IMG/VR virus record: IMGVR_UViG_3300031952_000010
Location: 27,512-91,511 of that record
From: a virus
DNA: 64,000 bases
Reading direction: 5' to 3' (one strand)
Part shown: one piece after another, positions 25,688 through 47,333 of the stretch
How the letters are laid out: each line of letters opens with the position of its first letter
Position numbering within the stretch: position 1 is the stretch's first letter
Notes under the pieces: model-generated
Told to the model about the DNA's origin: nothing
The model's input: the letters and a program-made list of their open reading frames with translations, nothing else
Databases searched by the model: none
Made by a program: the position numbers and the translations under genes

Positions 25688-25761
25688 GGCTCCGTAGCTC
25701 AATTGGACAGAGCAACACACTTCTAATGTGTAGGTTACTGGTTCGAGTCCAGTCGGGGTCA
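25688..25761 (+). tRNA. tRNA-Arg(UCU)
   Basis: Cloverleaf; ACACA-ctTCTaa-TGTGT; GGTTCGAGTCC. Confidence 0.95.
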
Positions 25762-25775
25762 CTAAAATTTATAAT

Positions 25776-26027
25776 ATGGGAAGTTATGACAATATATTAG
25801 AACAAGAACATAATGAGTTTGTTGAAAGCGACTTGTTTTGTTTTTACGTTCGTGAAAAAATAGAAAACTCACATTTTCATAAATACGATGGAATTGCCCC
25901 TGAGGGATTTATATTAATTCCAGAACAAACCTTAGAAAGATTAAAAGACTTCGAAACTTGGAAGGAATGGAAGAATAATCCATCTATTTTGAAAGAAATG
26001 ATGATTTATGACCTAAAAAATGAATAA
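25776..26027 (+). CDS. Hypothetical protein
   Basis: 83-aa ORF. Confidence 0.6.
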   Translation: MGSYDNILEQEHNEFVESDLFCFYVREKIENSHFHKYDGIAPEGFILIPEQTLERLKDFETWKEWKNNPSILKEMMIYDLKNE

Positions 26028-26066
26028 TTGTTTTGTGGATTAGAATATAATTAGTATATTTGTGGT

Positions 26067-26783
26067 ATGAAATATTCAGCACTTAAAGACATCGTTTATA
26101 TTGGTTTGATGGTTTTAGCTATCGGAGGAACCAACGAGTATTTGGACAAATACGACTACAGTTATGACAAAGTAATGGCGTCTATCGGGTCTGAAGCAAA
26201 AAGACTTGATAAAGTTTACGGTTATGACAAGAACTACTCAAAAGAAGATGTTGTTGAGGTAACTCCTGACGTAGAACAACCATCTTCAACTGAAGTTACT
26301 TCTGACCAAGTAATCTACATCCACGGTTTTGGTAACTACACTCAAAGTGACCTTTATACAATAAAAGAAGGTGTTGAAAACTTCTACGGTATCCGTTGTG
26401 TAATTTCTGAAAGTGTTGAGTCTGATGATTTCTACTATAACAATAACACTAACGTATTGTTAGCTTACAAAGTATTGTCATTATCTGTTGGTAAATCAAA
26501 CATGAATATGTACGTAACTGACGAACCATTATGTGAAGAAAATTCTAATAATTTAATCAGTGGTCACGCAAGAATTAATTGTGATGGTTCTGTTATCAGT
26601 ACTAAAGAAATGAGAAATAACAACCACTACAATAATAATAGTTTAGTTCACACTGCGGTACACGAGTTAGGTCATAACTTTGGGTTGTCTCACTGTAATA
26701 ACCAATCTTGTATCATGAAATCTCACGGTTTAGATACTAAAGAGTTCTGTGATGAGTGTAAATCAAAAATTAACAAACATTAA
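26067..26783 (+). CDS. Archaemetzincin-like zinc metallopeptidase with N-terminal membrane anchor
   Basis: HELGHNFGLSHC...CIM...FCDEC. Confidence 0.85.
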   Translation: MKYSALKDIVYIGLMVLAIGGTNEYLDKYDYSYDKVMASIGSEAKRLDKVYGYDKNYSKEDVVEVTPDVEQPSSTEVTSDQVIYIHGFGNYTQSDLYTIKEGVENFYGIRCVISESVESDDFYYNNNTNVLLAYKVLSLSVGKSNMNMYVTDEPLCEENSNNLISGHARINCDGSVISTKEMRNNNHYNNNSLVHTAVHELGHNFGLSHCNNQSCIMKSHGLDTKEFCDECKSKINKH

Positions 26784-26794
26784 AATAAATAGAT

Positions 26795-27058
26795 ATGCCT
26801 GATTTTAGTGCAGAAATTGACATCGAACCATATGAATATGTTTCGGCGTGTAGTAAACGTGAAATAGTAGAACTTCTTGAGTCTTTAGTTGAGGAGGGTT
26901 ACATTAGTAGAAGTGCAATCTCAGCAATTGATGCTGATAGGGATAAGAACCTTTTAGATGAAGAATGGGATGTGATAACTGATAAGTTGAATCAAAATCG
27001 ACTTATGTTATCTAATGAAGAAGAAGAACTAATTAGGAAAATATCAAAAAGATTTTAA
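26795..27058 (+). CDS. Hypothetical protein
   Basis: 87-aa ORF. Confidence 0.6.
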   Translation: MPDFSAEIDIEPYEYVSACSKREIVELLESLVEEGYISRSAISAIDADRDKNLLDEEWDVITDKLNQNRLMLSNEEEELIRKISKRF

Positions 27059-27063
27059 AAAAG

Positions 27064-27094
27064 TTTGACAATTGCAGAATTTTTCATAACTTTG
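27064..27094 (+). promoter_or_regulatory. Bacteroidota housekeeping-sigma promoter for leader 1 and tRNA operon 1
   Basis: TTTG (-33) ... TAACTTTG (-7). Confidence 0.75.
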
Positions 27095-27140
27095 TAATAA
27101 TTATAGAAACAGGTAGAAATACCACAACAAAAAAAAAACA

Positions 27141-27260
27141 ATGAAAACTAATAAACAACATATGGTCATTAACGTGAAATCGCAATTTAGTAATTGCTGG
27201 TATCCGCGTATTTCGCATACAAGTTCAGTTAGTTTATTAAGTGATATAATTTTTGAATAA
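27141..27260 (+). promoter_or_regulatory. Attenuator leader peptide of tRNA operon 1 (39 aa)
   Basis: MKTNKQHMVINVKSQFSNCWYPRISHTSSVSLLSDIIFE; A-rich initiation context; codons 12-26 match all 14 downstream tRNAs. Confidence 0.85.
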
Positions 27261-27285
27261 AAGATTAATCACACAAGATAACACG

Positions 27286-27320
27286 AATCCTGAACTCAAA
27301 AAGTTCAGGATTTTTTTTTT
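27286..27320 (+). terminator. Attenuator terminator of tRNA operon 1
   Basis: AATCCTGAACT-caaaa-AGTTCAGGATT plus T run; competing AGTTCAG at 27222-27228. Confidence 0.9.
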
Positions 27321-27330
27321 GTTATAAAGT

Positions 27331-27342
27331 GTTCTTTGACAT
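27331..27342 (+). promoter_or_regulatory. rrn-type boxA antitermination element
   Basis: GTTCTTTGACAT just before the first tRNA; recurs ahead of other RNA genes. Confidence 0.7.
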
Positions 27343-27358
27343 ATTGGTAAAAAGTAAA

Positions 27359-27430
27359 CGGGGTGTAGTCTCGAGGAGAGACGCGTGTTTTGGGAACACG
27401 AGGCGGCAGGTTCGACTCCTGTCACCCCGA
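27359..27430 (+). tRNA. tRNA-Pro(UGG)
   Basis: CGGGGTG/CACCCCG; CGTGT-ttTGGga-ACACG. Confidence 0.92.
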
Positions 27431-27436
27431 CTACAT

Positions 27437-27510
27437 TGTCACATAGCTCAGTTGGTTAGAGCGTTCGCCTGATACGCGAAAGGTCGATGGTTCGAGCCCA
27501 TCTGTGACAA
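27437..27510 (+). tRNA. tRNA-Ile(GAU)
   Basis: TTCGC-ctGATac-GCGAA. Confidence 0.95.
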
Positions 27511-27516
27511 CTTAAT

Positions 27517-27590
27517 GACTTCGTAGCTCAGTTGGCTAGAGCACCTCACTTTTAATGAGGGAGTCCCGAGTTCGAGTCTCGGCGGGGTCA
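27517..27590 (+). tRNA. tRNA-Lys(UUU)
   Basis: CCTCA-ctTTTaa-TGAGG. Confidence 0.95.
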
Positions 27591-27596
27591 CAATAA

Positions 27597-27668
27597 GGTC
27601 GGTTGGCCGAGTGGTTTAGGCGATAGTCTGCAAAACTATCAACACAGGTTCGACTCCTGTACCGACCT
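27597..27668 (+). tRNA. tRNA-Cys(GCA)
   Basis: ATAGT-ctGCAaa-ACTAT; U73 discriminator. Confidence 0.95.
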
Positions 27669-27673
27669 CAAAT

Positions 27674-27746
27674 ACGTCTGTAGCTCAGTTGGTAGAGCAT
27701 TGGTCTCCAAAACCAAGTGTCGGTGGTTCGAATCCATCCAGGCGTG
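27674..27746 (+). tRNA. tRNA-Trp(CCA)
   Basis: TTGGT-ctCCAaa-ACCAA. Confidence 0.95.
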
Positions 27747-27753
27747 CTAAAAT

Positions 27754-27839
27754 TGACGGGTTCGCGTAGTTGGCCGAACGCACCAGACTGTTAATCTGGC
27801 GAGACTTCTCCACCGTGGGTTCGAATCCCACCCCGTCAG
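27754..27839 (+). tRNA. tRNA-Asn(GUU) with a long variable arm
   Basis: TGACGGG/CCCGTCA; CCAGA-ctGTTaa-TCTGG; extra GAGActTCTC arm. Confidence 0.88.
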
Positions 27840-27888
27840 CAAACATTTACGAACTTTCTAATATTTATTAATATAAAATGTTAATATT

Positions 27889-28446
27889 ATGGAAAGGTAT
27901 TCGGAAAAAATAATTACCTTAAGGAAAGAAGGTAAAACCTATAAAGAAATTAAAAACATTATAGGGTGTGCAATGTCAACAATATCGTATCATTGTACAT
28001 TAAATGGTTTAGGGGATAATAACCAAAAGGTAACTGAGAACGAAATCATCGAACTTCAAAAAATGTATGACGAATTTGGTTCACTTAAAAAAGTTGCTAA
28101 AATAACGGGAAGGGCTTTTGATACCGTTCAAAAATATGTTAAGACAAAACAAAAAGTTAAAACTGTAACATCTTCTGAATCAGTTATTTTATGGAGAAAA
28201 AGGACTAAAATTAAATTGATTGAATATAAAGGAGGTAAATGTGAAATTTGTGGATATGATAAATGTAATAGAGCCTTACAATTTCATCATAAAAATCCAT
28301 TAGAAAAGGATTTTTCAATATCGGGTAGAAGTTTATCATTTGACAGATTAAAAGACGAGGTTGATAAATGTATGTTAGTTTGTTCTAATTGTCATTGTGA
28401 AATACACGATAATTTAATAACGATAAATAGGTTGATTAGGGAATGA
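27889..28446 (+). CDS. HTH-containing HNH (homing-type) endonuclease inserted in the tRNA operon
   Basis: Two HTH-like segments; KGGKCEICGY, LQFHH, CMLVCSNCHCEIH. Confidence 0.88.
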   Translation: MERYSEKIITLRKEGKTYKEIKNIIGCAMSTISYHCTLNGLGDNNQKVTENEIIELQKMYDEFGSLKKVAKITGRAFDTVQKYVKTKQKVKTVTSSESVILWRKRTKIKLIEYKGGKCEICGYDKCNRALQFHHKNPLEKDFSISGRSLSFDRLKDEVDKCMLVCSNCHCEIHDNLITINRLIRE

Positions 28447-28566
28447 TTGAACTGATAGTTCGAGAGTGAATACTGACTAGTACAATCGGAGTTTGCAGGT
28501 ATTCACCCGAGTAATGCTAATCGTAAAAACAGATGTCCACTGAACCATCTTCTGTTTTCCTAAATT

Positions 28567-28647
28567 GGGAGTATTGAGCAACGGTTGCTCAGCGGTCTGT
28601 AAAACCGTCGCCATTTGGCATTGCAGGTTCGAATCCCGCTACTCCCA
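28567..28647 (+). tRNA. tRNA-Tyr(GUA)
   Basis: GCGGT-ctGTAaa-ACCGT; long variable arm. Confidence 0.93.
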
Positions 28648-28701
28648 CAATAAAAAAAGGGGAATAACTTCCCCTCTTTTCTTTAATTTGGTTGTTATTA
28701 A

Positions 28702-28866
28702 TTATTTTTTTTTAGAAACAATTGACCACACACCACCTGCAAGTGTAACCGCTGCTCCGATAAGTTCTTGTACTGATGAATCAGTTGCAAGACCTTTCAT
28801 AATCAGGATACCACCTACGAAAGTAAGTGTGTGTCTAACGATACCTAGGATTTGTTCTTTAGTCAT
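28702..28866 (-). CDS. Small two-TM holin-like protein (54 aa)
   Basis: MTKEQILGIVRHTLTFVGGILIMKGLATDSSVQELIGAAVTLAGGVWSIVSKKK; below the ORF-track cutoff. Confidence 0.7.
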   Translation of the reverse strand: MTKEQILGIVRHTLTFVGGILIMKGLATDSSVQELIGAAVTLAGGVWSIVSKKK

Positions 28867-28922
28867 TTTAATGTTGATTAAAGGTTTATGCCAGTCTATA
28901 AGTATCGGAGAAATAGGTAAAC

Positions 28923-28993
28923 TGTCCTTTGGTCTAATGGCAGGACACGTGGTTTTGGTCCACGCGGTGGAGGTTCGAATCCTTCAGGGACAA
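28923..28993 (+). tRNA. tRNA-Gln(UUG)
   Basis: CGTGG-ttTTGgt-CCACG. Confidence 0.95.
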
Positions 28994-29045
28994 CAAGGGG
29001 TTCGGGGGAAACCCAATAGTGGGTGATGAGCCCACATCCTCCAAA

Positions 29046-29116
29046 TACCGAATGGTCTGGTGACCGAAAATGGCTCATATCCGTTTTTAGAGTGGTTCGA
29101 AACCATTATTCGGTAC
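29046..29116 (+). ncRNA. Non-canonical tRNA-like element (CAU anticodon, minimal D arm)
   Basis: TACCGAAT/ATTCGGTA; GGTC-tggt-GACC; ctCATat loop; GGTTCGAAACC. Confidence 0.55.
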
Positions 29117-29123
29117 TTTAAAC

Positions 29124-29196
29124 AGTTCCTTAGCTCAGTTGGGAGAGCGCTTGTTTTACATGCAAGATGTCGTAGGTTCGAATCCTACAGGAACTA
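29124..29196 (+). tRNA. tRNA-Val(UAC)
   Basis: CTTGT-ttTACat-GCAAG. Confidence 0.95.
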
Positions 29197-29558
29197 CAAA
29201 AAATGTTTGGAGAATTAAATAATTTGCCGTACATTTGTAATATAGAAGTAAGGGGGGTAGGTAGTTAGTGGGTTGGTGACCTACTCCCCTGACGAAAGAG
29301 TTCTTTGAATAAAATGTTGGTGGATGGTAAGAAACGGTAAACTCGTAAAGTGCATTAACCTGTTGATATGAAATGGTGAAACGAGAGTCCATATCAGCTA
29401 CTCATCACAATAAAAATATTGATAATGGTTTTCCCCATTCAACGAAGGTCGACTCTTCAGAATGGAATCGGAATTCATCACCCTTTGCTGAGGCCTCATT
29501 AAAACTCAGGAAGCAATTAAGATTGGAGCGAGACGGGTACTCCATCATTATTATACTT

Positions 29559-29631
29559 GGAACGGTAGCTCAGTTGGTAGAGCACTTGATTGAAGCTCAA
29601 GGTGTCGGCGGTTCGAACCCGTCTCGTTCCA
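29559..29631 (+). tRNA. tRNA-Phe(GAA)
   Basis: CTTGA-ttGAAgc-TCAAG. Confidence 0.95.
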
Positions 29632-29704
29632 CGGAGTCCTGAAATAACAGGATGCCCCCACTCCCATATGGCAGCCAGTCCATTAAGCTGGTGAAGGGGG
29701 TAAA

Positions 29705-29811
29705 TAGTCAAGTGGACGTAATGCGGGATGGTCCCAAGTCCCCAACTCTAACGAGGTAAGGTAGTCTAATCCGTCTTGAACGGTATTCGGTTCGAGTCCG
29801 ACCTTGATTAC
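29705..29811 (+). ncRNA. Enlarged tRNA-like element with no clear anticodon arm
   Basis: TAGTCAAG/CTTGATTA acceptor-like stem; TCGG-TTCGAGT-CCGA T arm; extra hairpins. Confidence 0.5.
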
Positions 29812-29814
29812 AAA

Positions 29815-29895
29815 TTGCGATAATGGTGTAGGGTCGTTCTCATGAGACGATTTGGTAGATATACCCCTGTGAGGTTCGAGTCCTCAAATCGCAAC
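29815..29895 (+). ncRNA. tRNA-like element lacking a D arm (CAU anticodon)
   Basis: TTGCGAT/ATCGCAA; TCGTT-ctCATga-GACGA; TGAGG-TTCGAGT-CCTCA. Confidence 0.55.
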
Positions 29896-29904
29896 AAATT
29901 ATAT

Positions 29905-29978
29905 GGTGACTATAGCTCAGTTGGCAGAGCAAAGGTTTGTGGTACCTTGTGCCATGGGTTCGATTCCCATTAGTCACC
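29905..29978 (+). tRNA. tRNA-His(GUG)
   Basis: Encoded G-1/C73; AAGGT-ttGTGgt-ACCTT. Confidence 0.95.
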
Positions 29979-30078
29979 CAAATAGGTTGGGGTCCCTTGT
30001 AGTAACGGATTGAACTATAGTAAGTAAACTACAAGTATCTAGTAAGAAGTCACAGATGGGTTCGTGACGACCTAAATT

Positions 30079-30163
30079 GGAGGAATGGCAGAGTGGTCTA
30101 TCGCACTTGTCTTGAAAACAAGCGTACCGAAAGGTACCGTAGGTTCGAATCCTACTTCCTCCG
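30079..30163 (+). tRNA. tRNA-Ser(UGA)
   Basis: CTTGT-ctTGAaa-ACAAG; long variable arm. Confidence 0.95.
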
Positions 30164-30186
30164 CAAAACAATTAGAAAAAAAACAT

Positions 30187-30390
30187 ATGACAGACAAGTT
30201 AAAAGAGTTGTTAGAGACATCTCAAATTGGGGAACCTGAAATCGTTGATTTAATTCATTCGTATTATAAATTAGTGACCGCTGAATTATTCACACAAGAA
30301 GAATTTGATACCGTATTAGAAAGATTAGGTATTACACAAAACGGGAACGTTTTTATTTTCAACGAGAACATAACTTATACTTTTAACTAA
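30187..30390 (+). CDS. Small hypothetical protein (67 aa)
   Basis: [13 protein letters not shown]...; the ORF-track start 30085 lies inside tRNA-Ser. Confidence 0.6.
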
Positions 30391-30393
30391 AAT

Positions 30394-30465
30394 AGTTCCT
30401 TGGTGTAATGGATAGCACTAAACACTACGGATGTTTCAGTGAGGGTTCGAGTCCTTCAGGGACTA
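30394..30465 (+). tRNA. tRNA-Arg(ACG)
   Basis: AAACA-ctACGga-TGTTT. Confidence 0.95.
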
Positions 30466-30470
30466 CTATT

Positions 30471-30555
30471 GGAAGATTGGCAGAGTGGTAATGCGGCGGT
30501 TTGCTAAACCGTAGACCTCGAAAGGGGTCCACAGGTTCGAATCCTGTATCTTCCG
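30471..30555 (+). tRNA. tRNA-Ser(GCU)
   Basis: GCGGT-ttGCTaa-ACCGT; long variable arm. Confidence 0.95.
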
Positions 30556-30600
30556 CTTATTTATAATTTTATACTATTTATTATCGAATAATATGATATC

Positions 30601-31995
30601 ATGAGTTACAAAAAATTTTTAATAGCGGAATCCGAGAAAAAGAACATTAGAGAAATGTACGGTTTACTAACCGAACAGTATTTCAAACCACCAAACGGTG
30701 GTGAAGGTCAAGTGGTAAATAAATATCCTGCGGGTTACTACTCCTTAAGTGGAACTGATAAGGCGGGTAACGTATATGACAATACAATCAATTTACAAAA
30801 AATTATTGACAATGCCAAAGAGTTTTTAACAACCAATAAAGGTTTTATTCCAAGAGTTGTAATAAACGCGGGAGAATCAATTATCCCTAACTACGACACT
30901 GAAGGGGGTACTGGTGTTAAAAACTCAGGATGGTTATCTGAAAAAAGAAAAAATAAGATTTCTGAATATGTCAAAAATCAATTAAAAGATTTAGTTAGTA
31001 AAAAATTAATATCAAAAGAACCTGAGGTTATTCTATATTTTGATGAAGCTAAAACATTAACGGTACCGTCAGGTGGTTGGGAGGGTTATCGAACATGGAA
31101 AAGAAGTTCTGAAGCTGAAAAGGTTAATAACCCTAATAATGCCGAGTACACCAAATTAAAAACAGGATACGATAATGACCAATTCACCAAAATAAATTTT
31201 AAAATTGTTCCTGATTTAGGCCCAAACCAATGTTCATTTAATGTCAAAATTGGTGTGCATTACGATGATTTAGATATTGGTCATAGATGTAATAAGGCGA
31301 GATTCCAAATATTGGCTAATGGTGTTCCGTTAACAACTGGTGCGGGCTCAACCTGTGGAAATGGTTTATCGTATGCGGACATGAATAACGGTGGTGGTAG
31401 TTTAGATTGTAAATCAGGCGACATTGGTGGTAAAAGAATGAATTACTTCCAACTAAATAGTAAGTCTATTGTGGACAAAATAATGGCGGCGTCTCCCGAC
31501 AAAAACTCAATAAAAATATCCATGAAATGTACATCAACAGGATTTGATGATGCTTCAGGTAGATGTCACCAAGATGTACCACATATTACGATTCATAACA
31601 CTGATGGTAAACAAACGGTTAACACCTACCCTAAAGTTAACGATAAAGATTTAATTACAATTGACAAGTGCGGTAATTTAATTACAGGTGGTGGTGGTGT
31701 CGCAACAAAAAGTAAAGATGCTGGTGGTACTGCAACAACTACAGTTACTACAACAAAACCTACAGGTCAAAAATTAAATTTTGCGTCACCAGCAACAGGA
31801 ACGTTAACTTCTGACCAAGCGATTCTTAATAAAATTAGTGATGGCTCAATTAAGAAAAACGCGGATAATACTTATTCAGTATTAAAAACATTTAATTATA
31901 ATGGTGTGTCTTATAGAATTAATGATACAATTGTTAAAATATTACCTAAAGGTAGTGTAGTAACTACGACAACGACAACTATTAAACCAAAATAA
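30601..31995 (+). CDS. Hypothetical (putative virion-associated) protein
   Basis: N-terminal FLIAESEKKNIREMYGLLTEQ; TATTTAT upstream. Confidence 0.6.
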   Translation: MSYKKFLIAESEKKNIREMYGLLTEQYFKPPNGGEGQVVNKYPAGYYSLSGTDKAGNVYDNTINLQKIIDNAKEFLTTNKGFIPRVVINAGESIIPNYDTEGGTGVKNSGWLSEKRKNKISEYVKNQLKDLVSKKLISKEPEVILYFDEAKTLTVPSGGWEGYRTWKRSSEAEKVNNPNNAEYTKLKTGYDNDQFTKINFKIVPDLGPNQCSFNVKIGVHYDDLDIGHRCNKARFQILANGVPLTTGAGSTCGNGLSYADMNNGGGSLDCKSGDIGGKRMNYFQLNSKSIVDKIMAASPDKNSIKISMKCTSTGFDDASGRCHQDVPHITIHNTDGKQTVNTYPKVNDKDLITIDKCGNLITGGGGVATKSKDAGGTATTTVTTTKPTGQKLNFASPATGTLTSDQAILNKISDGSIKKNADNTYSVLKTFNYNGVSYRINDTIVKILPKGSVVTTTTTTIKPK

Positions 31996-32020
31996 AAATG
32001 GGGGTCAGTGACCCCCAATT

Positions 32021-32416
32021 CTATTCGATATTACCGTAGTAGTGGTAAGAATTTTTACCATCATCAACAATAACTGTCATTGATGTGTTATCAACACATT
32101 GTGATGTGAAATAAGTCACAACACAGGTTTTGTTAGATTTCAATTCCACAGAGTAAAAAGAATTTACCCCAGGATTTGATTCTTTTGTACCTGAGAATTT
32201 GTATACCATCTCAGTACCTTCACTTTTAATTACTAAAGAATCTTTACCAATTAAAACGGTTGGTGAACTTAACAATACTGAATCAACCCATGTTGATGTA
32301 CTATCAGTGATTGCGTAACCAATCTCTAAAGATTTAACTTTTACTTTATAGATGTCTTGTGATAAACAAACTAATGTTGTTAAAGACAATAACGATGTTA
32401 GGATTAATTTTTTCAT
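32021..32416 (-). CDS. Secreted hypothetical protein
   Basis: Signal peptide MKKLILTSLLSLTTLVCLSQ. Confidence 0.7.
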   Translation of the reverse strand: MKKLILTSLLSLTTLVCLSQDIYKVKVKSLEIGYAITDSTSTWVDSVLLSSPTVLIGKDSLVIKSEGTEMVYKFSGTKESNPGVNSFYSVELKSNKTCVVTYFTSQCVDNTSMTVIVDDGKNSYHYYGNIE

Positions 32417-32546
32417 ACAACAAATATAACGCTCTTATTTGACTAAAACAAATTTTTTTATTATTTTCTTTCTAAAAATATTTTTTAAAAAGTTTTGGCA
32501 GTCTCAAAATTTATTGTATCTTTGTATTCACAAAAACGATATAACT

Positions 32547-32996
32547 ATGACAACTACCAACACAATCATCGACGTAACAACAGGAACATTAGCAGGTGAC
32601 GTATTCTACGGAAACTTTAAAACTCGTGTTAAAAATAAAGTAATTAATGTTATGGTTTCAAACCACTTGAAAGACATTAACAAAGAATATGAATTCCGTA
32701 TCGCAGGGAAATGTCAAGCAGGATTCATCAGTATCCACGATACTAAAGGAACCGCTGGTGAAGTTATCCGTGGATACCAAAAAAACTCTTTGGTTAATAT
32801 CCAAGCAAAAAATGAGTTCGGTCATTGGATGAATGTTTACACAACTAAAGGTGGTAAATGGTACTCAATCGACAAAGGTTTCTTGGAAACTATTACAGTT
32901 GGTACTATGAGAGAATCTTTCCCTGATATGTGCGATATGCAAATTTGGGAAAGAATGGGAGCTAAGACTTGGGCTGATAAGGCTTTCACAAAATAA
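32547..32996 (+). CDS. Hypothetical protein
   Basis: ORF track 32439..32996; ATG 32547 follows TATCTTTG. Confidence 0.65.
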   Translation: MTTTNTIIDVTTGTLAGDVFYGNFKTRVKNKVINVMVSNHLKDINKEYEFRIAGKCQAGFISIHDTKGTAGEVIRGYQKNSLVNIQAKNEFGHWMNVYTTKGGKWYSIDKGFLETITVGTMRESFPDMCDMQIWERMGAKTWADKAFTK

Positions 32997-33066
32997 GAAG
33001 TTTTTACCAATATTTGACTTTTTATGAAAGTCGTATATATTTAATAGAAAATACATAATACTGCAA

Positions 33067-33138
33067 ATGAAAAATTTAAATATCATACTATTAGGCGGGA
33101 CTGAGGCGGATACGTTAACTCGGACGGCGATGGTATGA
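33067..33138 (+). promoter_or_regulatory. Attenuator leader peptide of tRNA operon 2 (23 aa)
   Basis: MKNLNIILLGGTEADTLTRTAMV; run ATA CTA TTA GGC GGG ACT GAG GCG GAT matches the downstream tRNAs. Confidence 0.82.
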
Positions 33139-33162
33139 TGTTTTGTCAACAATAACAATCAG

Positions 33163-33192
33163 AACCCATCTCCAAAAAAGATGGGTTTTTTT
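33163..33192 (+). terminator. Attenuator terminator of tRNA operon 2
   Basis: AACCCATCT-ccaaaaa-AGATGGGTT plus T run; competing hairpin 33129-33170. Confidence 0.88.
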
Positions 33193-33261
33193 ATGTCTAA
33201 AAGTTGGTAATTAAATAAATTGTTGTATCTTTGTGAAACAATAAAGGGGATGAAACCCCGA

Positions 33262-33273
33262 GTTCTTTGACAT
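33262..33273 (+). promoter_or_regulatory. boxA element preceded by a boxB-like hairpin
   Basis: GGGG-atgaaa-CCCC then GTTCTTTGACAT. Confidence 0.7.
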
Positions 33274-33295
33274 GTTGGTTTGAAAAAAAAATTAA

Positions 33296-33367
33296 GGTCT
33301 ATTCGTTCATCGGCTAGGATGCTACCCTGTCACGGTAGTGAGGAGGGTTCGATTCCCTCATGGACCG
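33296..33367 (+). tRNA. tRNA-Asp(GUC)
   Basis: CTACC-ctGTCac-GGTAG. Confidence 0.95.
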
Positions 33368-33378
33368 CAAACAATAAG

Positions 33379-33454
33379 GGGGGTGCATGTACCAAGGCAT
33401 TGGCGATGTCGATTTGCAATCAACGTGAGGTGGGTTCGATTCCCATCATCTCCA
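33379..33454 (+). tRNA. tRNA-Ala(UGC) with atypical D arm
   Basis: G3.U70 pair; ttTGCaa loop; GGTTCGATTCC. Confidence 0.85.
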
Positions 33455-33467
33455 CACAAAAATATAT

Positions 33468-33539
33468 CGTGGGATAGAGCAGTGGTAGCTCGCAAGGCTC
33501 ATAACCTTGAGGTCGGGGGTTCGAATCCCTCTCCCGCAA
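33468..33539 (+). tRNA. tRNA-fMet(CAU)
   Basis: C1:A72 mismatch; CAAGG-ctCATaa-CCTTG. Confidence 0.88.
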
Positions 33540-33548
33540 CTAATACAT

Positions 33549-33622
33549 CGTGGGTTAGACTGGAGGTGGTTCCAGCTTGGTCTCATAAGCCAAAGACGGG
33601 GGTTCGAGTCCCTCACCCGCAA
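33549..33622 (+). tRNA. tRNA-Met(CAU)
   Basis: TTGGT-ctCATaa-GCCAA; also has C1:A72, so elongator versus initiator role is uncertain. Confidence 0.8.
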
Positions 33623-33700
33623 CAAATGTGTCTCAATTCCCTGAAGAAATTCAAAGTTGAGGTCTCGGTAGACAGAACGCGTCTGATTCTACCCAAATAC

Positions 33701-33773
33701 GCGAATATCGTATAGTGGTTTATTACTCCATCCTTCCAAGTTGGAGACGACAGTTCGATTCTGTCTATTCGCT
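33701..33773 (+). tRNA. tRNA-Gly(UCC)
   Basis: GCGAATA/TATTCGC; ctTCCaa loop; U73. Confidence 0.93.
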
Positions 33774-33780
33774 CAAAAAT

Positions 33781-33861
33781 GCTTAAGTGGTGGAATGGTA
33801 TACACGTATGTCTTAGGAACATATGTCTTATGACGTGAGGGTTCGAGTCCCTCCTTAAGTA
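33781..33861 (+). tRNA. tRNA-Leu(UAG)
   Basis: TATGT-ctTAGga-ACATA; variable arm. Confidence 0.93.
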
Positions 33862-34428
33862 CAAAACCAAGGTAATGTCAGTAGGATGAGGCCGCAATCG
33901 GATTCCTTTGAACAACGCGTGAGGGGCGGCTTTCACGATGTGGCTGATAACCCGAGGTTTTAAGACCCCACGAGTAACGGAGATATCCGACCGTTATGGA
34001 GTGTGAACCTGACTTGAAGGCTTCAAGGCTATGGGGGAGGCAACACAAACAAACACGGATTCCCCATTATGGATTAAGGGGGTAAGGGGCTTTAATTAGT
34101 CGTAATACAATCCACAAGTTGTAAGAACACTGAACAATCTTACAATACACACTCTGACTTCCGAGTGAGACTCACCACGTAACTTTGGGGGTAGGGTGAA
34201 GATGTTCTGAGGATAACACTGAACGCTGAACAGTAAAAACCATGACGCATTTGATTGGTAGAATAGGTTAAGACGGAGTGTGAAAGTAGAAACCCCCGAT
34301 GGATGGTTACTAAGCTCTTTAACTCAAAAGGGATAGTCGGGAGGGATATATAAGCTTAAGGGAAACTATAAGTAAAAACTAGGTCAGTTCCGATTTAACC
34401 CCTATCGGTACGAGTGTCTGACCTTAAT

Positions 34429-34501
34429 GCCTCCTTAGCTCAGTTGGCAGAGCACTTGTTTTGTAAACAAGATGTCGTTGGTTCGAATCCGACAGGAGGC
34501 T
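34429..34501 (+). tRNA. tRNA-Thr(UGU)
   Basis: CTTGT-ttTGTaa-ACAAG. Confidence 0.95.
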
Positions 34502-34527
34502 CAATGAGTAAGAGATACTCATCAAAT

Positions 34528-34613
34528 GCTCGGGTGGTGTAATTGGTAGCCACGCAAGACTTAAAATCTTGTGGACTGTAAGGTCCGTGCGGGTTCGATT
34601 CCCGCCCCGAGTA
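34528..34613 (+). tRNA. tRNA-Leu(UAA)
   Basis: CAAGA-ctTAAaa-TCTTG; long variable arm. Confidence 0.95.
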
Positions 34614-34615
34614 CT

Positions 34616-34813
34616 AAAACAAATCTTACATAAGACGGATTAGCACCGTTGAAAGGAACCTTGGCTTCACCGCGGAGTAATTACCGTAACAGAAGTTCTA
34701 AATGCCCCAAGGTACTATGTAATGGACCCTGCTCTGATGTGCACGTCAACAGGTGATGGGGAACAAACCATCGGTCAAATCTAAACCTACGGTGAGCGTA
34801 GAAGATTTGTTTT
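34616..34813 (+). ncRNA. Unidentified ~200-nt multibranched RNA
   Basis: 12-bp closing stem AAAACAAATCTT/AAGATTTGTTTT plus several internal stems; no ORF. Confidence 0.6.
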
Positions 34814-34818
34814 TATTT

Positions 34819-34893
34819 GGTCCCATCGTCTAACGGTTAGGACATCAGGTTTTCATCCTGAAAATCGGGGTTCGATTCCCCGTGGGACTACCA
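34819..34893 (+). tRNA. tRNA-Glu(UUC), CCA encoded
   Basis: TCAGG-ttTTCat-CCTGA. Confidence 0.95.
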
Positions 34894-34914
34894 AATATTC
34901 TTCATTTATATAAA

Positions 34915-34988
34915 GGACTTGTAGCTCAGTTGGTTAGAGCACCGCACTCATAATGCGTAGGTCCATGGTTCGAGTCCATGCTGGTCCA
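34915..34988 (+). tRNA. tRNA(CAU), probable Ile2 (lysidine; reads AUA)
   Basis: ctCATaa loop; body GGACTTGTAGCTCAGTTGGTTAGAGC resembles bacterial Ile2; Met not excluded. Confidence 0.75.
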
Positions 34989-35040
34989 CTTTTTTCAAAT
35001 TATACATTGCCAGTCCAAATTTTTTTTGTATATTTGTTAT

Positions 35041-37472: not shown

Positions 37473-37637
37473 TAATCAGAACCTTTGAGGAAACTTTACA
37501 GTTTTCTTTTTAATAAAATATACTATATTTATAAATGAAACCTTGTTACTGAGGTCCACGTGTCCAAGAGACATTTGAGTTGGTTAACCACCAACGAAGT
37601 GGGGTTCAATAAACATAAAAATTAAAATAAGGAAAAA

Positions 37638-38474
37638 ATGTATTATCAAACAAAAACCGTAACGCCATGTGCGTTCATCACAAAAGACAAATTACGTCTT
37701 AAACAATTTGGACATAATGTCTATCTTAAAAACGGGTCTGAATTCGAATTAGAATTATTCAACCCAACACAATCAAGTGTTTTAACAAAAATTAGAATCG
37801 ACGGAAATTATATTTCAGGTGGAGGAATTGTTCTTAAACCAGGACAACGAATTTATCTTGAGCGATTTTTAGACGATGCTAAAAAATTTAAATTTGAGAC
37901 TTACGAAGTTGAATCAACTTCTAATGAAGTACTAAACGCAATATCTAATAATGGTAATGTGGACGTAGAATTCTACGAGGAATTTATTAAACCAACCTAC
38001 CAACAACCCTTTTTGGTTAATTACCCGTTGGTTAACCCTTTAGTTAATTACCCGTCAACAAATCCAAACCCTTACTATGTAAACACTTTTACAACCACAG
38101 GTTTAAATAATACCGTATCTACGTATACATCAAGTGTTGGGTTTAATCCTTCAAATAGTGGTGACGCAACTTTAAGTTTTACCAACGGTTACTCAAATAA
38201 ATTTGAAAATAAACCAAGAAGTCAAAGTTTATCTAAAAAATCAAAATCAATAGAAACAGGTAGAGTTGAGAAGGGTGGTAACAGTAACCAATCCTTTAGA
38301 ACTGTTAATAAAGATTTTAATAGTTATACGGTATCAACATCTAACTGGAAAATACTTCCTGAGTCAGTTAAACCATACGAATCAAATGATTTAAAAGTTC
38401 ACTGTACTGAATGCGGAAGTAAGAGAAAGAAAGATTCTCATAAATTTTGTCCTAATTGCGGAACAAAATACTAA
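37638..38474 (+). CDS. Hypothetical protein with C-terminal zinc ribbon
   Basis: CTECG...FCPNCG; structured 5' leader. Confidence 0.75.
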   Translation: MYYQTKTVTPCAFITKDKLRLKQFGHNVYLKNGSEFELELFNPTQSSVLTKIRIDGNYISGGGIVLKPGQRIYLERFLDDAKKFKFETYEVESTSNEVLNAISNNGNVDVEFYEEFIKPTYQQPFLVNYPLVNPLVNYPSTNPNPYYVNTFTTTGLNNTVSTYTSSVGFNPSNSGDATLSFTNGYSNKFENKPRSQSLSKKSKSIETGRVEKGGNSNQSFRTVNKDFNSYTVSTSNWKILPESVKPYESNDLKVHCTECGSKRKKDSHKFCPNCGTKY

Positions 38475-38598
38475 AATAAAACAACAAGGTTTCAAAAAAT
38501 AAACCCCTTCTATTCGGAGGGGTTTTGTTTTTAATAAAAAATGCAGTATCTTTGTTCAAATAAAGGTGATGAAAAGAACAAGTAAAAAAAATTATACT

Positions 38599-39009
38599 AT
38601 GAAACAAAGAATATATTTGGATGATGTTAGAACTCCTGTAGAAAAAGACCAATGGATTGTTGTTAGAAATTACGATGAGTTCGTAACTAAAGTTACTGAA
38701 ATTGGTTTAGAGAATATTGGCTTGATTTCCTTGGACCACGACTTAGGTGATACTGCGATGGCGGAATGGCGTAAAAACGTTTACCACAACTACGAATTAA
38801 ATTACGATAACATCACTGAAAAAACAGGGATGGATTGTACTAAATGGTTAGTGGAAAAATGGATGGATGGTGAACCTGTTGTAGATGTAGTAATCCATTC
38901 AGCTAATGCTATTGGTAGTGCTAATATGATGGGATATATTAATAACTATCGTCACATTAATCGTTTACCACAAAATTGTGTAAGAGTACAAATCGAACAT
39001 ACTGTATAA
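38599..39009 (+). CDS. Cyclic-phosphate-processing receiver-like domain protein
   Basis: IYLDDVRTP, ISLDHDLG, TGMDC, HSAN. Confidence 0.8.
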   Translation: MKQRIYLDDVRTPVEKDQWIVVRNYDEFVTKVTEIGLENIGLISLDHDLGDTAMAEWRKNVYHNYELNYDNITEKTGMDCTKWLVEKWMDGEPVVDVVIHSANAIGSANMMGYINNYRHINRLPQNCVRVQIEHTV

Positions 39010-39011
39010 AA

Positions 39012-39503
39012 ATGAATATTTTCTTCTTAGATTTTGATGTTAAAAAGTGTGCGGAGTATCATTGTGACAAACACGTTGTTAAGATGATACTGGAAACCGC
39101 ACAACTTTTATGTTCGTCCCACCATGTTACAGGGGGAACTGCACCATATAAGTTATCACATAAAAACCACCCATGTTCAATATGGGTTCGGTCGTCGTTA
39201 TCTAATTACCTTTACTTATGTGAATTAGGGTTGGAGTTAGGTAAAGAATATACTCATCGTTATGGTAAAAAACATAAGTCAGTTGAGGTGATTGAATGGT
39301 GTTTGGTGAATAGACCTAATATCCGCGATATTGATTTCACATGTCCACCATTAGCAATGGGTGATGAATACAAAATAGGTAATGATGTTATTGAATCCTA
39401 CCGAAATTATTATAAAGGAGCCAAGTCAAAAATTGTTTCTTGGAAAAACAGAGAAAAACCTTTTTGGTTTGAAAAAAAAGAGTTAAATTTGCAATATGAT
39501 TAA
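39012..39503 (+). CDS. Pyrimidine-dimer DNA glycosylase/endonuclease V-like protein
   Basis: MNIFFLD, CDKHVVKMILETAQLL, HKNHPC, EYTHRYGKKH. Confidence 0.8.
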   Translation: MNIFFLDFDVKKCAEYHCDKHVVKMILETAQLLCSSHHVTGGTAPYKLSHKNHPCSIWVRSSLSNYLYLCELGLELGKEYTHRYGKKHKSVEVIEWCLVNRPNIRDIDFTCPPLAMGDEYKIGNDVIESYRNYYKGAKSKIVSWKNREKPFWFEKKELNLQYD

Positions 39504-40158
39504 GATAGATAAAGACTTTAAAGGAGATGTGTGGGTTTTTTCGGACCCACACTACAACCACAAAAATATATGTCGTGGTGTAACCGCGTGGCGTTTACCT
39601 GACGGAACTGTACCATTATCACAAACTCGTGATTTTGAAACAATCGACAAGATGAACGCATTGATAGTAAATAACATCAATGAAAATGTGATGCAAGACG
39701 ATATTTTAATTTGTCTTGGTGATTGGAGTTTCGGAGGTTTTGAATCAATCAAAGAATTTTGGGATAGAATTGTTTGTAAAAACATTCACCTTATTTTAGG
39801 TAACCATGACCATCACATTGAAAACAACCGAGACGGTTGTCAGGGATACTTCAAGAGTGTTTCTCATTACAACACTTTGAGAATTGACGAACACACGTTC
39901 CGATTGATGCACTACCCAATAAGTTCTTGGGATGGGTTAAATAAAGGTGTTATGCACCTTCACGGACACTGTCACTTACCAACTAGTTTACGTTTAGGTA
40001 AAGGACAACGATTAGATGTTGGTATGGATGGTCACCCTGAATTTCGACCATACAATATTCGACGTGAAGTTGTTCCTATGTTACGACACAGAGATAAAGT
40101 ATCTGAGATGGATAATGACCATCACACTGATGAAATAATTAATAAAGATAAAGGATAA
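39496..40158 (+). CDS. Calcineurin-like metallophosphoesterase
   Basis: SDPH, LGD, GNHD, HYP, HGHCH, DVGMD. Confidence 0.88.
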   Translation: MIKIDKDFKGDVWVFSDPHYNHKNICRGVTAWRLPDGTVPLSQTRDFETIDKMNALIVNNINENVMQDDILICLGDWSFGGFESIKEFWDRIVCKNIHLILGNHDHHIENNRDGCQGYFKSVSHYNTLRIDEHTFRLMHYPISSWDGLNKGVMHLHGHCHLPTSLRLGKGQRLDVGMDGHPEFRPYNIRREVVPMLRHRDKVSEMDNDHHTDEIINKDKG

Positions 40159-40162
40159 TAAT

Positions 40163-40435
40163 ATGAAACATGATAAAGACATTTTGATTTGCAGTTGCCA
40201 TTCAACTGACCACCAATTAATTGTTCTATACGAACAAGATGAAGATTTTCCGATGGTTTATTTCCACATTCATTTGAATGAAAGACCTTTTTGGGAAAGA
40301 TTGGTTTATGGTGTAAAATATATTTTTGGTAGAAAATCTAGATACGGAGCCTTTGATGAATTTATATTTAATCACGACGACGCTCACAAAGTTGAAAGAA
40401 TTTTAAAATATTTACGAGATGAAAAAACCGTGTAA
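40163..40435 (+). CDS. Hypothetical protein
   Basis: CSCHSTDH motif. Confidence 0.6.
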   Translation: MKHDKDILICSCHSTDHQLIVLYEQDEDFPMVYFHIHLNERPFWERLVYGVKYIFGRKSRYGAFDEFIFNHDDAHKVERILKYLRDEKTV

Positions 40436-40625
40436 GGAATGTCCTTGGGTTGTTAAAAACAAACATAACGAAATGATTACTAATCATTCGACAAAACATA
40501 ATAAACCCCATAATTGTCATATGATATCACCTGAAAAAAGAGGTGGGTTATGGGATGTAAAAGAAGAAACTAAATGTATAGGGAGAAAATTATATGAACA
40601 CAGAGAGAAAGTTAGCGAGTATTAG
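40419..40625 (+). CDS. Small Cys/His protein
   Basis: KPCKECPW...HNCH...C. Confidence 0.6.
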   Translation: MKKPCKECPWVVKNKHNEMITNHSTKHNKPHNCHMISPEKRGGLWDVKEETKCIGRKLYEHREKVSEY

Positions 40626-41616: not shown

Positions 41617-41834
41617 TGGAAGAAAAGAATATTAGAAGAACCTTAATACGAGAGGAACTCAACGATAAACAACAGAAAATGTATGATGAATGGTTGTCTC
41701 ACATTAAAGCGATTTATGGTAGTTACGGTTTATTTACTTGGAAAATAACCCCAAACGGTATTGATAGTGAAATTGTAATTTATAGTCACCATACAAAAAC
41801 AGAATTAGATTTAACCGACGTTGATAGTTGGTAA
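41616..41834 (+). CDS. Hypothetical protein
   Basis: 72-aa ORF ending DLTDVDSW. Confidence 0.6.
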   Translation: MEEKNIRRTLIREELNDKQQKMYDEWLSHIKAIYGSYGLFTWKITPNGIDSEIVIYSHHTKTELDLTDVDSW

Positions 41835-41861
41835 TTAATAAAAAAGTATTACCTTTGTGAC

Positions 41862-46862: not shown

Positions 46863-46947
46863 ATGCTATAAAAACTAATTTTTGTACAACACCAAATAAT
46901 AATTTTACCGCATAAAAAAACCCCATCCGAAGATGAGGTTTAATGAG

Positions 46948-47333
46948 TGGAGGTAGAGGGGTTCGAACCCTCGTGTTGTACACCTTACCTATTAAGGACT
47001 ACACGCTTAGGATAACATTTTCTAATGTTCCAAAAATATTTAGTTTGTTCTTCACCATCGTAAACTAACAACCAATGGACGACTCGATTTTGGGTTCAGT
47101 CATTTTTCCACCTTTGTAAAGACTTCTGTTCCTAGGTTGTATGTCCACCGACCCGTATGGTGTTTCCTATATGTTAGGCAACAACCGCAGCGTCTTCACG
47201 GATTAATCCGATGGTCGCCATTTTGTCTAAAACGTTTCCGTTTACAGTTTACATCCGTAGATTTAAGTGATAGGATACATCTCACTGCGTGCCCCGAATA
47301 ACTAACAATGCCAGTCAATTCCAAGTTACCCCC
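46948..47333 (-). ncRNA. ssrA: tmRNA
   Basis: 5' GGGGGUA pairs with 3' UACCUCC-A including G3.U; T arm GAGGGUUCGAACCCCUC; tag ORF 47239-47174 GNVLDKMATIGLIREDAAVVA; boxA upstream, terminator downstream. Confidence 0.92.

Follow-up and report, generated by a model that had tools for sequence, protein, structure and literature searches.

A non-redundant tRNA gene island in a probable jumbo phage of freshwater Bacteroidota, a candidate spare decoding kit

Large sets of transfer RNA (tRNA) genes are known from several groups of phages. The Xanthomonas jumbo phage XacN1 carries 56 tRNAs for all 20 amino acids (PMC5852040), and huge phages encode up to 67, together with transfer-messenger RNA (tmRNA), ribosomal proteins and tRNA-repair ligases (PMC7162821). 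Chen et al. 2022 described jumbo phages of freshwater Bacteroidetes whose structural module carries the gene of ribosomal protein bS21 on its reverse strand. These phages have genomes of 293–331 kb with 31.0–33.7% G+C and 5–25 (average 17) tRNA genes, and their published host range is Flavobacteriia (PMC9723584). Published experiments demonstrated that phage tRNAs rescue infection from tRNA-cutting defences (PMC10264068, PMC11464382, PMC11555353): mycobacteriophage tRNAs with altered anticodon loops serve as counter-defence (PMC10264068), and T5 tRNAs counter PARIS and retron effectors (PMC11464382, PMC11555353). The phage group with its range of tRNA numbers, phage tRNA sets for all 20 amino acids and the idea of a tRNA reserve or counter-defence are thus part of the literature. 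Here, we analyzed the tRNA island in a 64,000-nucleotide (nt) stretch of DNA (the window), which covers bases 27512–91511 of the 91.5-kb IMG/VR virus contig IMGVR_UViG_3300031952_000010. We put the probability at roughly 55% that the island represents a spare, non-redundant decoding kit keeping translation going upon host tRNA loss, which acts alongside RNA repair and is probably controlled by leader open reading frames (ORFs).

The contig has a G+C content of 32.4% and accounts for 31% of the genome by CheckV, which gives a genome of ~300 kb. A T4-type large terminase, a portal and a prohead protease are encoded in the window and identify it, an IMG/VR virus record, as part of a virus genome. 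The structural module also contains the following gene:

62378–62572, reverse strand: ribosomal protein bS21 (PF01165, 34.8 bits), with terminase, portal and prohead protease around it

The closest cellular homologues of this bS21 are all from Bacteroidota, for the most part from Flavobacteriaceae. Position and strand of bS21, the G+C content, the genome size and the tRNA numbers (6–27 in the window and its sister strains, published 5–25) are like those of the bS21 jumbo phages (PMC9723584). Judged by these sequence features, the phage belongs to this published group and would be a ~300-kb myophage of freshwater Bacteroidota. While that report, as far as read, gives tRNA counts only (PMC9723584), the window adds a one-per-box design, the classes of its CAU genes, odd tRNA shapes, linkage to repair genes and leader ORFs.

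One gene for each codon box

The tRNA genes were called by ARAGORN and scored with the Rfam tRNA model (gathering cut-off 29 bits); all positions are those of the window. ARAGORN called 27 tRNA genes, where the first-pass annotation had counted 25, all on the forward strand within 9.3 kb (25688–34989), and 24 of them reach the Rfam gathering score. Neither elsewhere in the window nor in the remaining 27.5 kb of the contig did ARAGORN call a tRNA. The island comprises the following elements (bits are Rfam scores):

25688–25762, +: tRNA-Arg(UCU), 69.2 bits; lone gene upstream of both clusters, reads AGA/AGG
27359–27431, +: tRNA-Pro(UGG), 51.7 bits
27437–27511, +: tRNA-Ile(GAU), 71.9 bits
27517–27591, +: tRNA-Lys(UUU), 66.2 bits
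27597–27669, +: tRNA-Cys(GCA), 64.9 bits
27674–27747, +: tRNA-Trp(CCA), 69.1 bits
27754–27840, +: tRNA-Asn(GUU), 87 nt, long variable arm (class-II shape), discriminator G, 49.7 bits
27889–28446, +: helix-turn-helix (HTH) and HNH-like ORF; HTH from Pfam, which finds this domain only, HNH from Cys/His motifs read by eye
28567–28648, +: tRNA-Tyr(GUA), 51.5 bits
28658–28675, both strands: bidirectional terminator-like hairpin after tRNA-Tyr
28702–28866, −: 54-amino-acid (aa) two-helix membrane-type ORF that splits cluster 1, no family match
28923–28994, +: tRNA-Gln(UUG), 60.2 bits
29047–29116, +: 70-nt tRNA(CAU), putative elongator-Met type, 22.5 bits
29124–29197, +: tRNA-Val(UAC), 69.5 bits
29559–29632, +: tRNA-Phe(GAA), 65.1 bits
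29809–29895, +: tRNA-like element with CAU loop and long variable arm, ARAGORN 103 (lowest class), no Rfam match
29906–29979, +: tRNA-His(GUG), 64.6 bits
30079–30164, +: tRNA-Ser(UGA), 55.8 bits
30394–30466, +: tRNA-Arg(ACG), 53.3 bits
30471–30556, +: tRNA-Ser(GCU), 62.4 bits
33296–33368, +: tRNA-Asp(GUC), 50.8 bits
33379–33455, +: tRNA-Ala(UGC)-like gene, non-canonical, ARAGORN 100, no Rfam tRNA match
33468–33540, +: predicted initiator tRNA(CAU), 64.3 bits
33549–33623, +: predicted second initiator-type tRNA(CAU), 38 bits
33701–33774, +: tRNA-Gly(UCC), 58.3 bits
33781–33862, +: tRNA-Leu(UAG), 58 bits
34429–34502, +: tRNA-Thr(UGU), 69.7 bits
34528–34614, +: tRNA-Leu(UAA), 56.4 bits
34718–34779, +: freshwater-1 RNA (Rfam, 84 bits), between tRNA-Leu(UAA) and tRNA-Glu
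34819–34893, +: tRNA-Glu(UUC), 65.3 bits, the sole gene encoding CCA
34915–34989, +: tRNA(CAU) of predicted Ile2 type, 66.4 bits

This anatomy of the tRNA set is near certain. The 22 non-CAU genes carry 22 different anticodons and fill each of the 22 non-AUR boxes once, without a duplicate or a gap. Seven family boxes are served by tRNAs with U at position 34 (U34), namely Leu-UAG, Val-UAC, Ser-UGA, Pro-UGG, Thr-UGU, Ala-UGC and Gly-UCC; the remaining anticodons are ACG for CGN, those of 13 two-codon sets and Ile-GAU. For 22 draws from a Flavobacteriaceae-like tRNA pool, the chance of filling 22 boxes once each is ~7e-10, and we therefore regard the pattern as real. In a closely related strain (L080, 98.5% identical DNA where the two overlap), there are 24 genes, comprising 21 of the 22 different non-CAU anticodons and a single gene of each CAU class; its contig ends before the Arg-UCU site. 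Since Arg-UCU would bring this content to 25 genes, the intended kit, as deduced from the two sequences, is one of 22 non-CAU tRNAs, initiator (fMet), Met and Ile2, covering 25 decoding jobs (8 family boxes, 13 two-codon sets, Ile-GAU, Ile2, Met and initiator). The 25-gene kit with one tRNA per box proposed in the first-pass annotation therefore holds for the 22 non-CAU boxes and for the number of jobs, but a different gene serves as Met. As that annotation stated, Arg-UCU alone lies outside the two clusters. Its two operons are roughly right, but simplified: cluster 1 contains the HNH/HTH ORF, the terminator after Tyr and the opposite-strand membrane ORF, and thus at least two transcription blocks.

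Compared with known systems, XacN1 (PMC5852040) and huge phages (PMC7162821) likewise carry tRNAs for all 20 amino acids, but their sets are redundant, with many isoacceptors and copies, whereas the window shows no duplicate among its 22 non-CAU anticodons. One U34 tRNA per family box is also found in the minimal superwobble sets of organelles (plastids, Helicosporidium; PMC3413147). These organellar sets keep fMet, Met, Ile-CAU and Ile-GAU, and the window has fMet, Ile2, Ile-GAU and a Met candidate below the Rfam cut-off; in organelles, however, it is the only set in the compartment and U34 is unmodified, while the set of the window would stand beside a full host set (PMC3413147).

As a proxy host we used Planktosalinus lacus (Flavobacteriaceae), which may differ from the phage's own host. 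It has 37 tRNAs with 33 anticodons, including both G34 and U34 tRNAs in each family box, and the phage tRNAs are 53–82% identical to their counterparts in this species. In the phage, AGA is the main Arg codon (21 per mille), and U or C is the last base of 55% (4131/7463) of the family-box codons. That all-reading U34 tRNAs are carried despite this share fits a spare kit better than matching of codon frequencies.

CAU genes and tRNAs of unusual shape

The isotypes of the CAU genes were assigned using published discriminator positions together with similarity to relatives and the proxy host. According to Silva et al. 2006, C3:G70 is found in Met and fMet, while G3/A3 or C70/T70 marks Ile2; C4:G69 and C5:G68 are common in Ile2, and A11:T24 and G12:C23 mark fMet (PMC1635315). 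The gene at 33468 has C1xA72, A11:U24 and G12:C23 and is 78% identical to the initiator of the proxy host, and we assign it as the initiator on these positions. The gene at 33549 shows the same C1xA72 mismatch and acceptor and T arms near-identical to those of 33468, combined with a hairpin D arm. At the initiator's place, one strain (L010) has only the 33468 type, another (L004) only the 33549 type, and the window both. The two genes, both initiator-type and described as "two Met-type" in the first-pass annotation, are thus best classified by sequence as two alleles of the initiator and not as initiator plus elongator; a role of 33549 as elongator Met was ruled out by C1xA72 and by the strain having only this type at the initiator's place.

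The gene at 34915, which had been called a probable Ile2, keeps this assignment. It carries A3:U70 and C4:G69 and shares 80% identity with the Ile2-type CAU tRNA of Planktosalinus lacus, i.e. the one that is neither initiator nor C3:G70 Met. It is accordingly classed as Ile2-type rather than Met and is predicted to read AUA after lysidine modification by the host enzyme TilS, so that AUA is not left without a reader. As elongator Met, the likely best candidate is the gene at 29047, which was missing from the earlier count. With C3:G70, G4:C69, A5:U68 and A73, it groups with normal elongator-type Met tRNAs of relatives; its D arm consists of a 4-bp stem and a 4-nt loop, the compact cloverleaf is its minimum free energy (MFE) fold (z −3.3), and it is retained in strain L080 with 2 changes. 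The CAU call at 29809 has three acceptor mismatches in ARAGORN's register and is missing from L080; a shifted acceptor at 29815 pairs perfectly. It is probably a tRNA-like remnant rather than a working tRNA. Just before it lies a further tRNA-like element (29705–29811) with a good acceptor stem and T arm and an enlarged middle, a diverged counterpart of which is present in L080 (reverse complement) at about 2330–2460.

The Ala gene at 33379 is the lowest ARAGORN call and lacks an Rfam tRNA match even if searched alone; the one resemblance seen with Rfam is that of its 3' half to the tRNA-like end of tmRNA. In a register 4 bases upstream of ARAGORN's, the acceptor GGGGGUG/CAUCUCC pairs perfectly and includes G3:U70, the pair required by alanyl-tRNA synthetase. 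The gene has a normal T arm, an aberrant D region and one C-A mismatch in the anticodon stem, and its acceptor pair 7:66 is changed from A:U to G:C relative to the Ala tRNA of relative L031, i.e. by covariation. From these features, the Ala-like tRNA may well be charged, and its role in decoding is putative.

Less expected than the set itself are these reshaped tRNA sequences: three genes have hairpin D arms, and the Asn tRNA is class-II-shaped, as are Thr, Gln and Lys tRNAs of relatives. A D arm in the form of a plain hairpin with a 4-nt, GG-containing loop occurs at 29047–29116, 33379–33455 and 33549–33623 (in this order GGUC-UGGU-GACC, CCAA-GGCA-UUGG and CUGGAG-GUGG-UUCCAG, with 6 bp in the gene at 33549), and these are the genes scoring low or failing in covariance models. 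Class-II-shaped tRNAs of 83–87 nt with a long variable arm bear anticodons of isoacceptors that are normally short-armed. Besides 27754–27840 in the window, they were seen at L020:1566–1648, L069:8933–9017 (c), L029:2641–2724, L041:1117–1200, L070:246–329 (c), L020:3613–3697 and L066:12810–12893 among the relatives. Long-arm Asn-GUU is present in three diverged relatives, mutual best matches at 68–76% identity, and long-arm Thr-UGU in three relatives with compensatory changes in the acceptor stem; long-arm Gln and Lys were also seen. In the literature we found no published description of long-variable-arm tRNAs with such anticodons. The shape could reflect nuclease evasion, mischarging or a tolerated insertion. 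If active, the oddly shaped tRNAs would be natural examples of how far an alteration of the tRNA body is tolerated.

Strain L080 has an ordinary 73-nt Asn gene in place of the 87-nt long-arm Asn and lacks the HTH/HNH ORF. Comparison of window positions 27757–28426 with L080 (reverse complement) 717–790 reveals that ORF and long-arm Asn together replace the ordinary gene, which, from the alignment, looks like a tRNA gene swap linked to a homing endonuclease. Separately, a 275-aa protein (2584–3411, +) consists of the catalytic core of a class-IIb aminoacyl-tRNA synthetase alone (PF00152), with no anticodon-binding domain; it weakly resembles AsnRS, AspRS and the EF-P lysine ligase EpmA. The complete relative G008 encodes a version with 82% identity, and four other relatives lack the protein. 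A role as the dedicated charging enzyme for the long-arm Asn was rejected: G008 combines the protein with a normal Asn, while G010 and G017 carry the long-arm Asn without it.

The tRNA genes of the island also illustrate pitfalls of annotation: standard tools would either miss Ala and elongator Met, so that the set seems incomplete, or assign wrong labels, calling Ile2 a Met tRNA and taking the second initiator for the elongator.

Relatives, leader ORFs and RNA repair

Megablast of the tRNA island against cultured phages returned short tRNA matches only and no related genome, and the 464-aa ORF between the tRNA clusters, used as query, found no relatives. With the Rnl1-type ligase as query, we obtained 66 related IMG/VR loci, in many of which tRNA arrays lie within 10 kb of the ligase; this holds for most relatives whose fetched flank reaches the island. 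Four large relatives are listed with tRNA counts for the whole record, obtained with Rfam:

G008: 308 kb with terminal repeats, completeness 100%, 20 tRNAs
G006: 287 kb, completeness 86%, 23 tRNAs
G010: 182 kb, completeness 61%, 26 tRNAs
G007: 282 kb, completeness 96%, 13 tRNAs

In these complete or large relatives (13–26 tRNAs), all tRNAs are located in one ~10-kb island with the same anticodon choices, and duplicates are rare. AUA is read in some relatives by Ile-UAU, instead of or beside Ile2. As the contig covers only ~31% of the genome, minimality was judged on that part plus the relatives. Five sister contigs (91.6% nucleotide identity over the fetched overlap, collinear with 39–53 kb of the window) contain no tRNA over ~85 kb further downstream. 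Together with the single island of the large relatives, they count against hidden tRNAs elsewhere in the genome. These five independent contigs of 88–92 kb all begin within 37500–41400, just downstream of the tRNA island, which points to assemblies being interrupted there by strain variation in the island. We also considered that they are permuted 90-kb genomes, which was ruled out by their start just downstream of the island and their run of ~85 kb beyond it. Genes, anticodons, non-redundancy, the pattern across the family and the linkage to repair genes are all direct observations.

Each of the two clusters is preceded by a short leader ORF and a terminator-like hairpin:

27141–27260, +: leader ORF 1, 39 codons, contains 15/15 boxes of cluster 1
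27285–27320, +: terminator-like hairpin, 12 bp and T run, 38 nt before tRNA-Pro
33067–33138, +: leader ORF 2, 23 codons, contains 8/8 boxes of cluster 2
33161–33196, +: terminator-like hairpin, 11 bp and T run, before cluster 2

Leader 1 (38 codons after the start) includes Cys, Trp, His, CGN and an internal AUG. Full coverage as seen here is reached by 5e-4 of random peptides at phage codon usage and by 8/19,337 windows of real ORFs. Leader 2 includes AUA, GCG and one CGG, with P ~0.011 for full coverage, and the split of codons between the two leaders tracks the split of tRNAs between the clusters (Fisher p 2e-4). This match provides independent support for 34915 as a reader of AUA, for a Met reader in cluster 1 and for counting the Ala gene as a member. 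A 7-nt segment inside leader 1 (27222–27228) can pair with the 5' arm of the terminator when the 3' arm is absent; for leader 2, a search for an alternative antiterminator pairing found none. The absence of AGA and AGG from the leaders, noted in the first-pass annotation, is true of both ORFs and was given no weight alone, with a chance probability of 0.23. The term "inducible", used there for the set, has sequence support in the codon-matched leaders and strong terminators, but the alternative pairing was found for leader 1 only and the match is not fully kept in two sister strains (see below). Leader 2 is mostly written in the phage's rare G-ending codons (GGC, GGG, GAG, GCG, ACG), plus the CGG that Arg-ACG cannot read.

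Contigs from four metatranscriptome runs (four studies) cover the phage-specific spacers of both clusters with few differences (for example 28652–29546, 33724–34344 and 34061–34521). Two RNA-library contigs span leader, terminator and first tRNAs (27067–27419 and 33038–33515), which is compatible with long precursor transcripts reading through the terminators. Stretches without RNA-library cover, such as 31015–32216, are uninformative. As proof of expression, library depth was dropped, as tRNA parts attract the tRNAs of other organisms and DNA carry-over is possible.

Downstream of the island, the window encodes an RNA-repair cassette and a tmRNA:

38566–42944, +: RNA-repair cassette of a cREC phosphoesterase domain, a metallophosphoesterase, a DRB0094-type RNA ligase and a T4 Rnl1-type ligase
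46945–47333, −: tmRNA (Rfam 68.5 bits, E 1.4e-24), uncalled by ARAGORN

The DRB0094-type ligase scores 201.7 bits, above the NCBIfam cut-off. The Rnl1-type ligase reaches 62.9 bits with PF09511 (cut-off 28.3) and 77.7 with the NCBIfam equivalog (cut-off 242), which makes it a family member but not an equivalog. The cREC cyclic-phosphate domain and the metallophosphoesterase are located directly upstream of the ligases, and no polynucleotide kinase domain was found among the ORFs scanned. The tmRNA, RNA ligases and bS21 on which the first-pass annotation had drawn are all present, and in relatives, too, the tRNA island adjoins the repair cassette. RNA-repair gene sets have been described in jumbo phages (PMC7824862). 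Like these and the tRNA repair of T4, the window combines an Rnl1-type ligase and a second ATP-dependent RNA ligase with end-healing phosphoesterases (PMC7824862); T4, however, pairs Rnl1 with a polynucleotide kinase-phosphatase, while no kinase was identified among the scanned ORFs of the window.

Possible functions of the island

From the gene set and its surroundings, we infer a reserve function, its regulation and activity of the odd Ala and Met tRNAs. In this proposal, the stretch would be the tRNA island of a ~300-kb myophage of freshwater Bacteroidota, holding in addition a spare initiator variant and a tRNA-like remnant. Its tRNAs would be transcribed as long precursors and then cut out, CCA-tailed, modified and charged by host enzymes, and transcription into each cluster would probably be set by the speed of ribosomes on a short leader ORF made up of the codons that the cluster reads. 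Phage tRNAs might then sustain translation when host tRNAs are short, either cut by host defence nucleases or no longer synthesized after infection, while the adjoining RNA ligases would repair cut tRNAs, so that replacement and repair are combined. The proposed logic is the same as for the counter-defence tRNAs of mycobacteriophages and T5, i.e. phage replacements for nuclease-destroyed tRNAs. In those cases, however, single tRNAs act and resistance was demonstrated, whereas the set of the window is a proposed reserve whose most conspicuous differences lie in the D arm and the variable arm. If the proposal holds, a set with one decoder per job would indicate the minimal tRNA kit still worth keeping under selection, and the supply of tRNAs would stand out as a major point of conflict between Bacteroidota and these abundant lake phages.

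Several observations weigh against such a reserve. In 19/25 working candidates, the 7-nt anticodon loop matches that of the proxy host exactly, and only Ile-GAU, Val, Phe, Arg-ACG, Ala and Met differ; the nuclease-escape changes in anticodon loops that the first-pass annotation proposed to look for are thus not evident, with the proviso that the proxy is perhaps not the true host. Regarding the covariance models to which it had tied its set, 24/27 calls pass, but the Ala gene fails completely and has an MFE fold that is not a cloverleaf (z −0.24), and the elongator-Met candidate at 29047 scores 22.5 bits where the cut-off is 29. The proxy host decodes family-box codons ending in U or C with G34 tRNAs, whereas the phage kit could read them solely by wobble of U34, modified or unmodified, and reading of the C-ending ones would depend on the state of U34 modification. 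Inosine at position 34 does not pair with G, and Arg-ACG after A34 to I34 conversion reads CGU, CGC and CGA, but not CGG. CGG is thus without a reader in the phage set and not all 61 sense codons are readable; the codon is nearly unused (4/23,137 codons, 0.2 per mille). Moreover, the kit relies on host synthetases, TilS, the A34 deaminase and the CCA-adding enzyme. Neither TilS nor a CCA-adding enzyme was found on the contig, where only tRNA-Glu encodes CCA, and no TilS was detected in three large relatives (two of them 96–100% complete), while the proxy host has one; phage-encoded versions were accordingly discarded as candidates. That the set is a full back-up of the host pool, as had been proposed, is therefore unproven, given non-canonical Ala and elongator Met, unread CGG and the need for host enzymes.

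The variation among strains points in the same direction. A sister lineage (90–91% protein identity for the upstream metalloprotease) has only 6, 8 or 14 tRNAs on contigs of 39–93 kb, so that the complete set is dispensable. All sister strains retain Arg-UCU at this position, including the ones that have six tRNAs. From these comparisons, non-redundancy is a rule of the family, whereas completeness is not, and the island is an accessory, fast-changing region. Two sister strains with reduced arrays carry a homologue of leader 1 followed by a terminator (L073:11705–11809 and L075:1740–1850), and these homologues still list codons for tRNAs that have been lost (Lys, Val, Asn, Ser, Phe, Tyr, Arg). 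The match of leader and tRNAs is thus not always upheld; either the tRNAs were deleted recently in the two strains, or the leader may respond to decoding capacity as a whole. Finally, the RNA-library data are assembled contigs with possible DNA carry-over, and their depth cannot rank genes.

One alternative is that the tRNAs raise the supply of decoders for the heavy late protein output of an AT-rich phage, with no loss of host tRNAs. This classical view of a translation boost or codon tuning, as set out in PMC10264068, is compatible with family-box tRNAs that are all cognates of A-ending codons in a phage of 32% GC with strong use of A/U-ending codons, and the range of 6 to 27 genes between strains fits a quantitative benefit better than an essential function. 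We nevertheless consider it rather unlikely. Rarely used boxes are covered as well (Cys 9, Trp 12, CGN 10 per mille), and each tRNA comes as one gene, with no extra copies for the commonest codons. U-ending codons are the commonest in family boxes; G34 tRNAs would match this frequency, yet none is carried there. The published host range and phage GC of 31–34% (PMC9723584), set against the GC content of Flavobacteriia, leave little compositional gap for tuning to bridge. Linkage to the repair cassette in relatives and the U34 choice fit a spare kit better than simple matching of codon frequencies. The first-pass contrast with codon-bias tuning is favoured by the same two features, but remains unproven.

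The fast turnover itself might suggest a mobile cassette, in which homing endonucleases and recombination shuffle tRNA genes and the complete set is just one unselected state. The HNH/HTH ORF that arrived together with a different Asn gene, the two initiator types that are alternative alleles in L010 and L004 and both present in the window, the variable content among close strains and the breaks of sister contigs downstream of the island all fit this explanation. Random gain and loss, however, predicts duplicates and gaps, yet 22/22 boxes are filled once; relatives almost never carry duplicates, and L080 retains the same 24 genes. We thus regard an unselected state as improbable. The tRNAs could also act as mere processing signals, at which RNase P and RNase Z cuts release structured non-coding RNAs as the real cargo. 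Long G+C-rich structured spacers do lie between tRNAs, including freshwater-1 RNA and the ~560-nt spacer between Leu(UAG) and Thr (33863–34428), over which RNA-library contigs have depths of 31–41 compared with 3–6 for neighbouring ORFs, a depth that cannot rank expression. As punctuation would need no 22 different one-per-box anticodons, and many tRNAs are only 5–15 nt apart with nothing between them, this last explanation seems highly improbable, even more so than an unselected cassette.

A more specific version of the reserve proposal would have the kit sense its own need, the leaders opening the clusters when decoding slows, and the reshaped tRNAs evade host tRNA-targeting enzymes by the shape of their body. 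The members concerned would be long-arm Asn, Thr, Gln and Lys, as well as Met, Ala and initiator with hairpin D arm and 4-nt GG loop. Synthetases and ribosome would still accept them, and escape would not be through the anticodon loop, in which escape changes were not seen relative to Planktosalinus lacus. We offer this extension as a speculative and doubtful one.

Outside the island, four genes of the window are host-like, encoding a polyphosphate kinase 2 (240 bits), a tandem-PAS-domain protein, a ClpB/ClpA-type double AAA+ ATPase and a nucleotidyltransferase-M23 peptidase fusion; the coordinates of this group are 7226–8344, 13677–14786, 49698–51740 (reverse strand) and 52417–53712. A full-length GOLLD RNA (46023–46432, +; Rfam 320 bits) is located ~500 nt from the tmRNA gene on the opposite strand.

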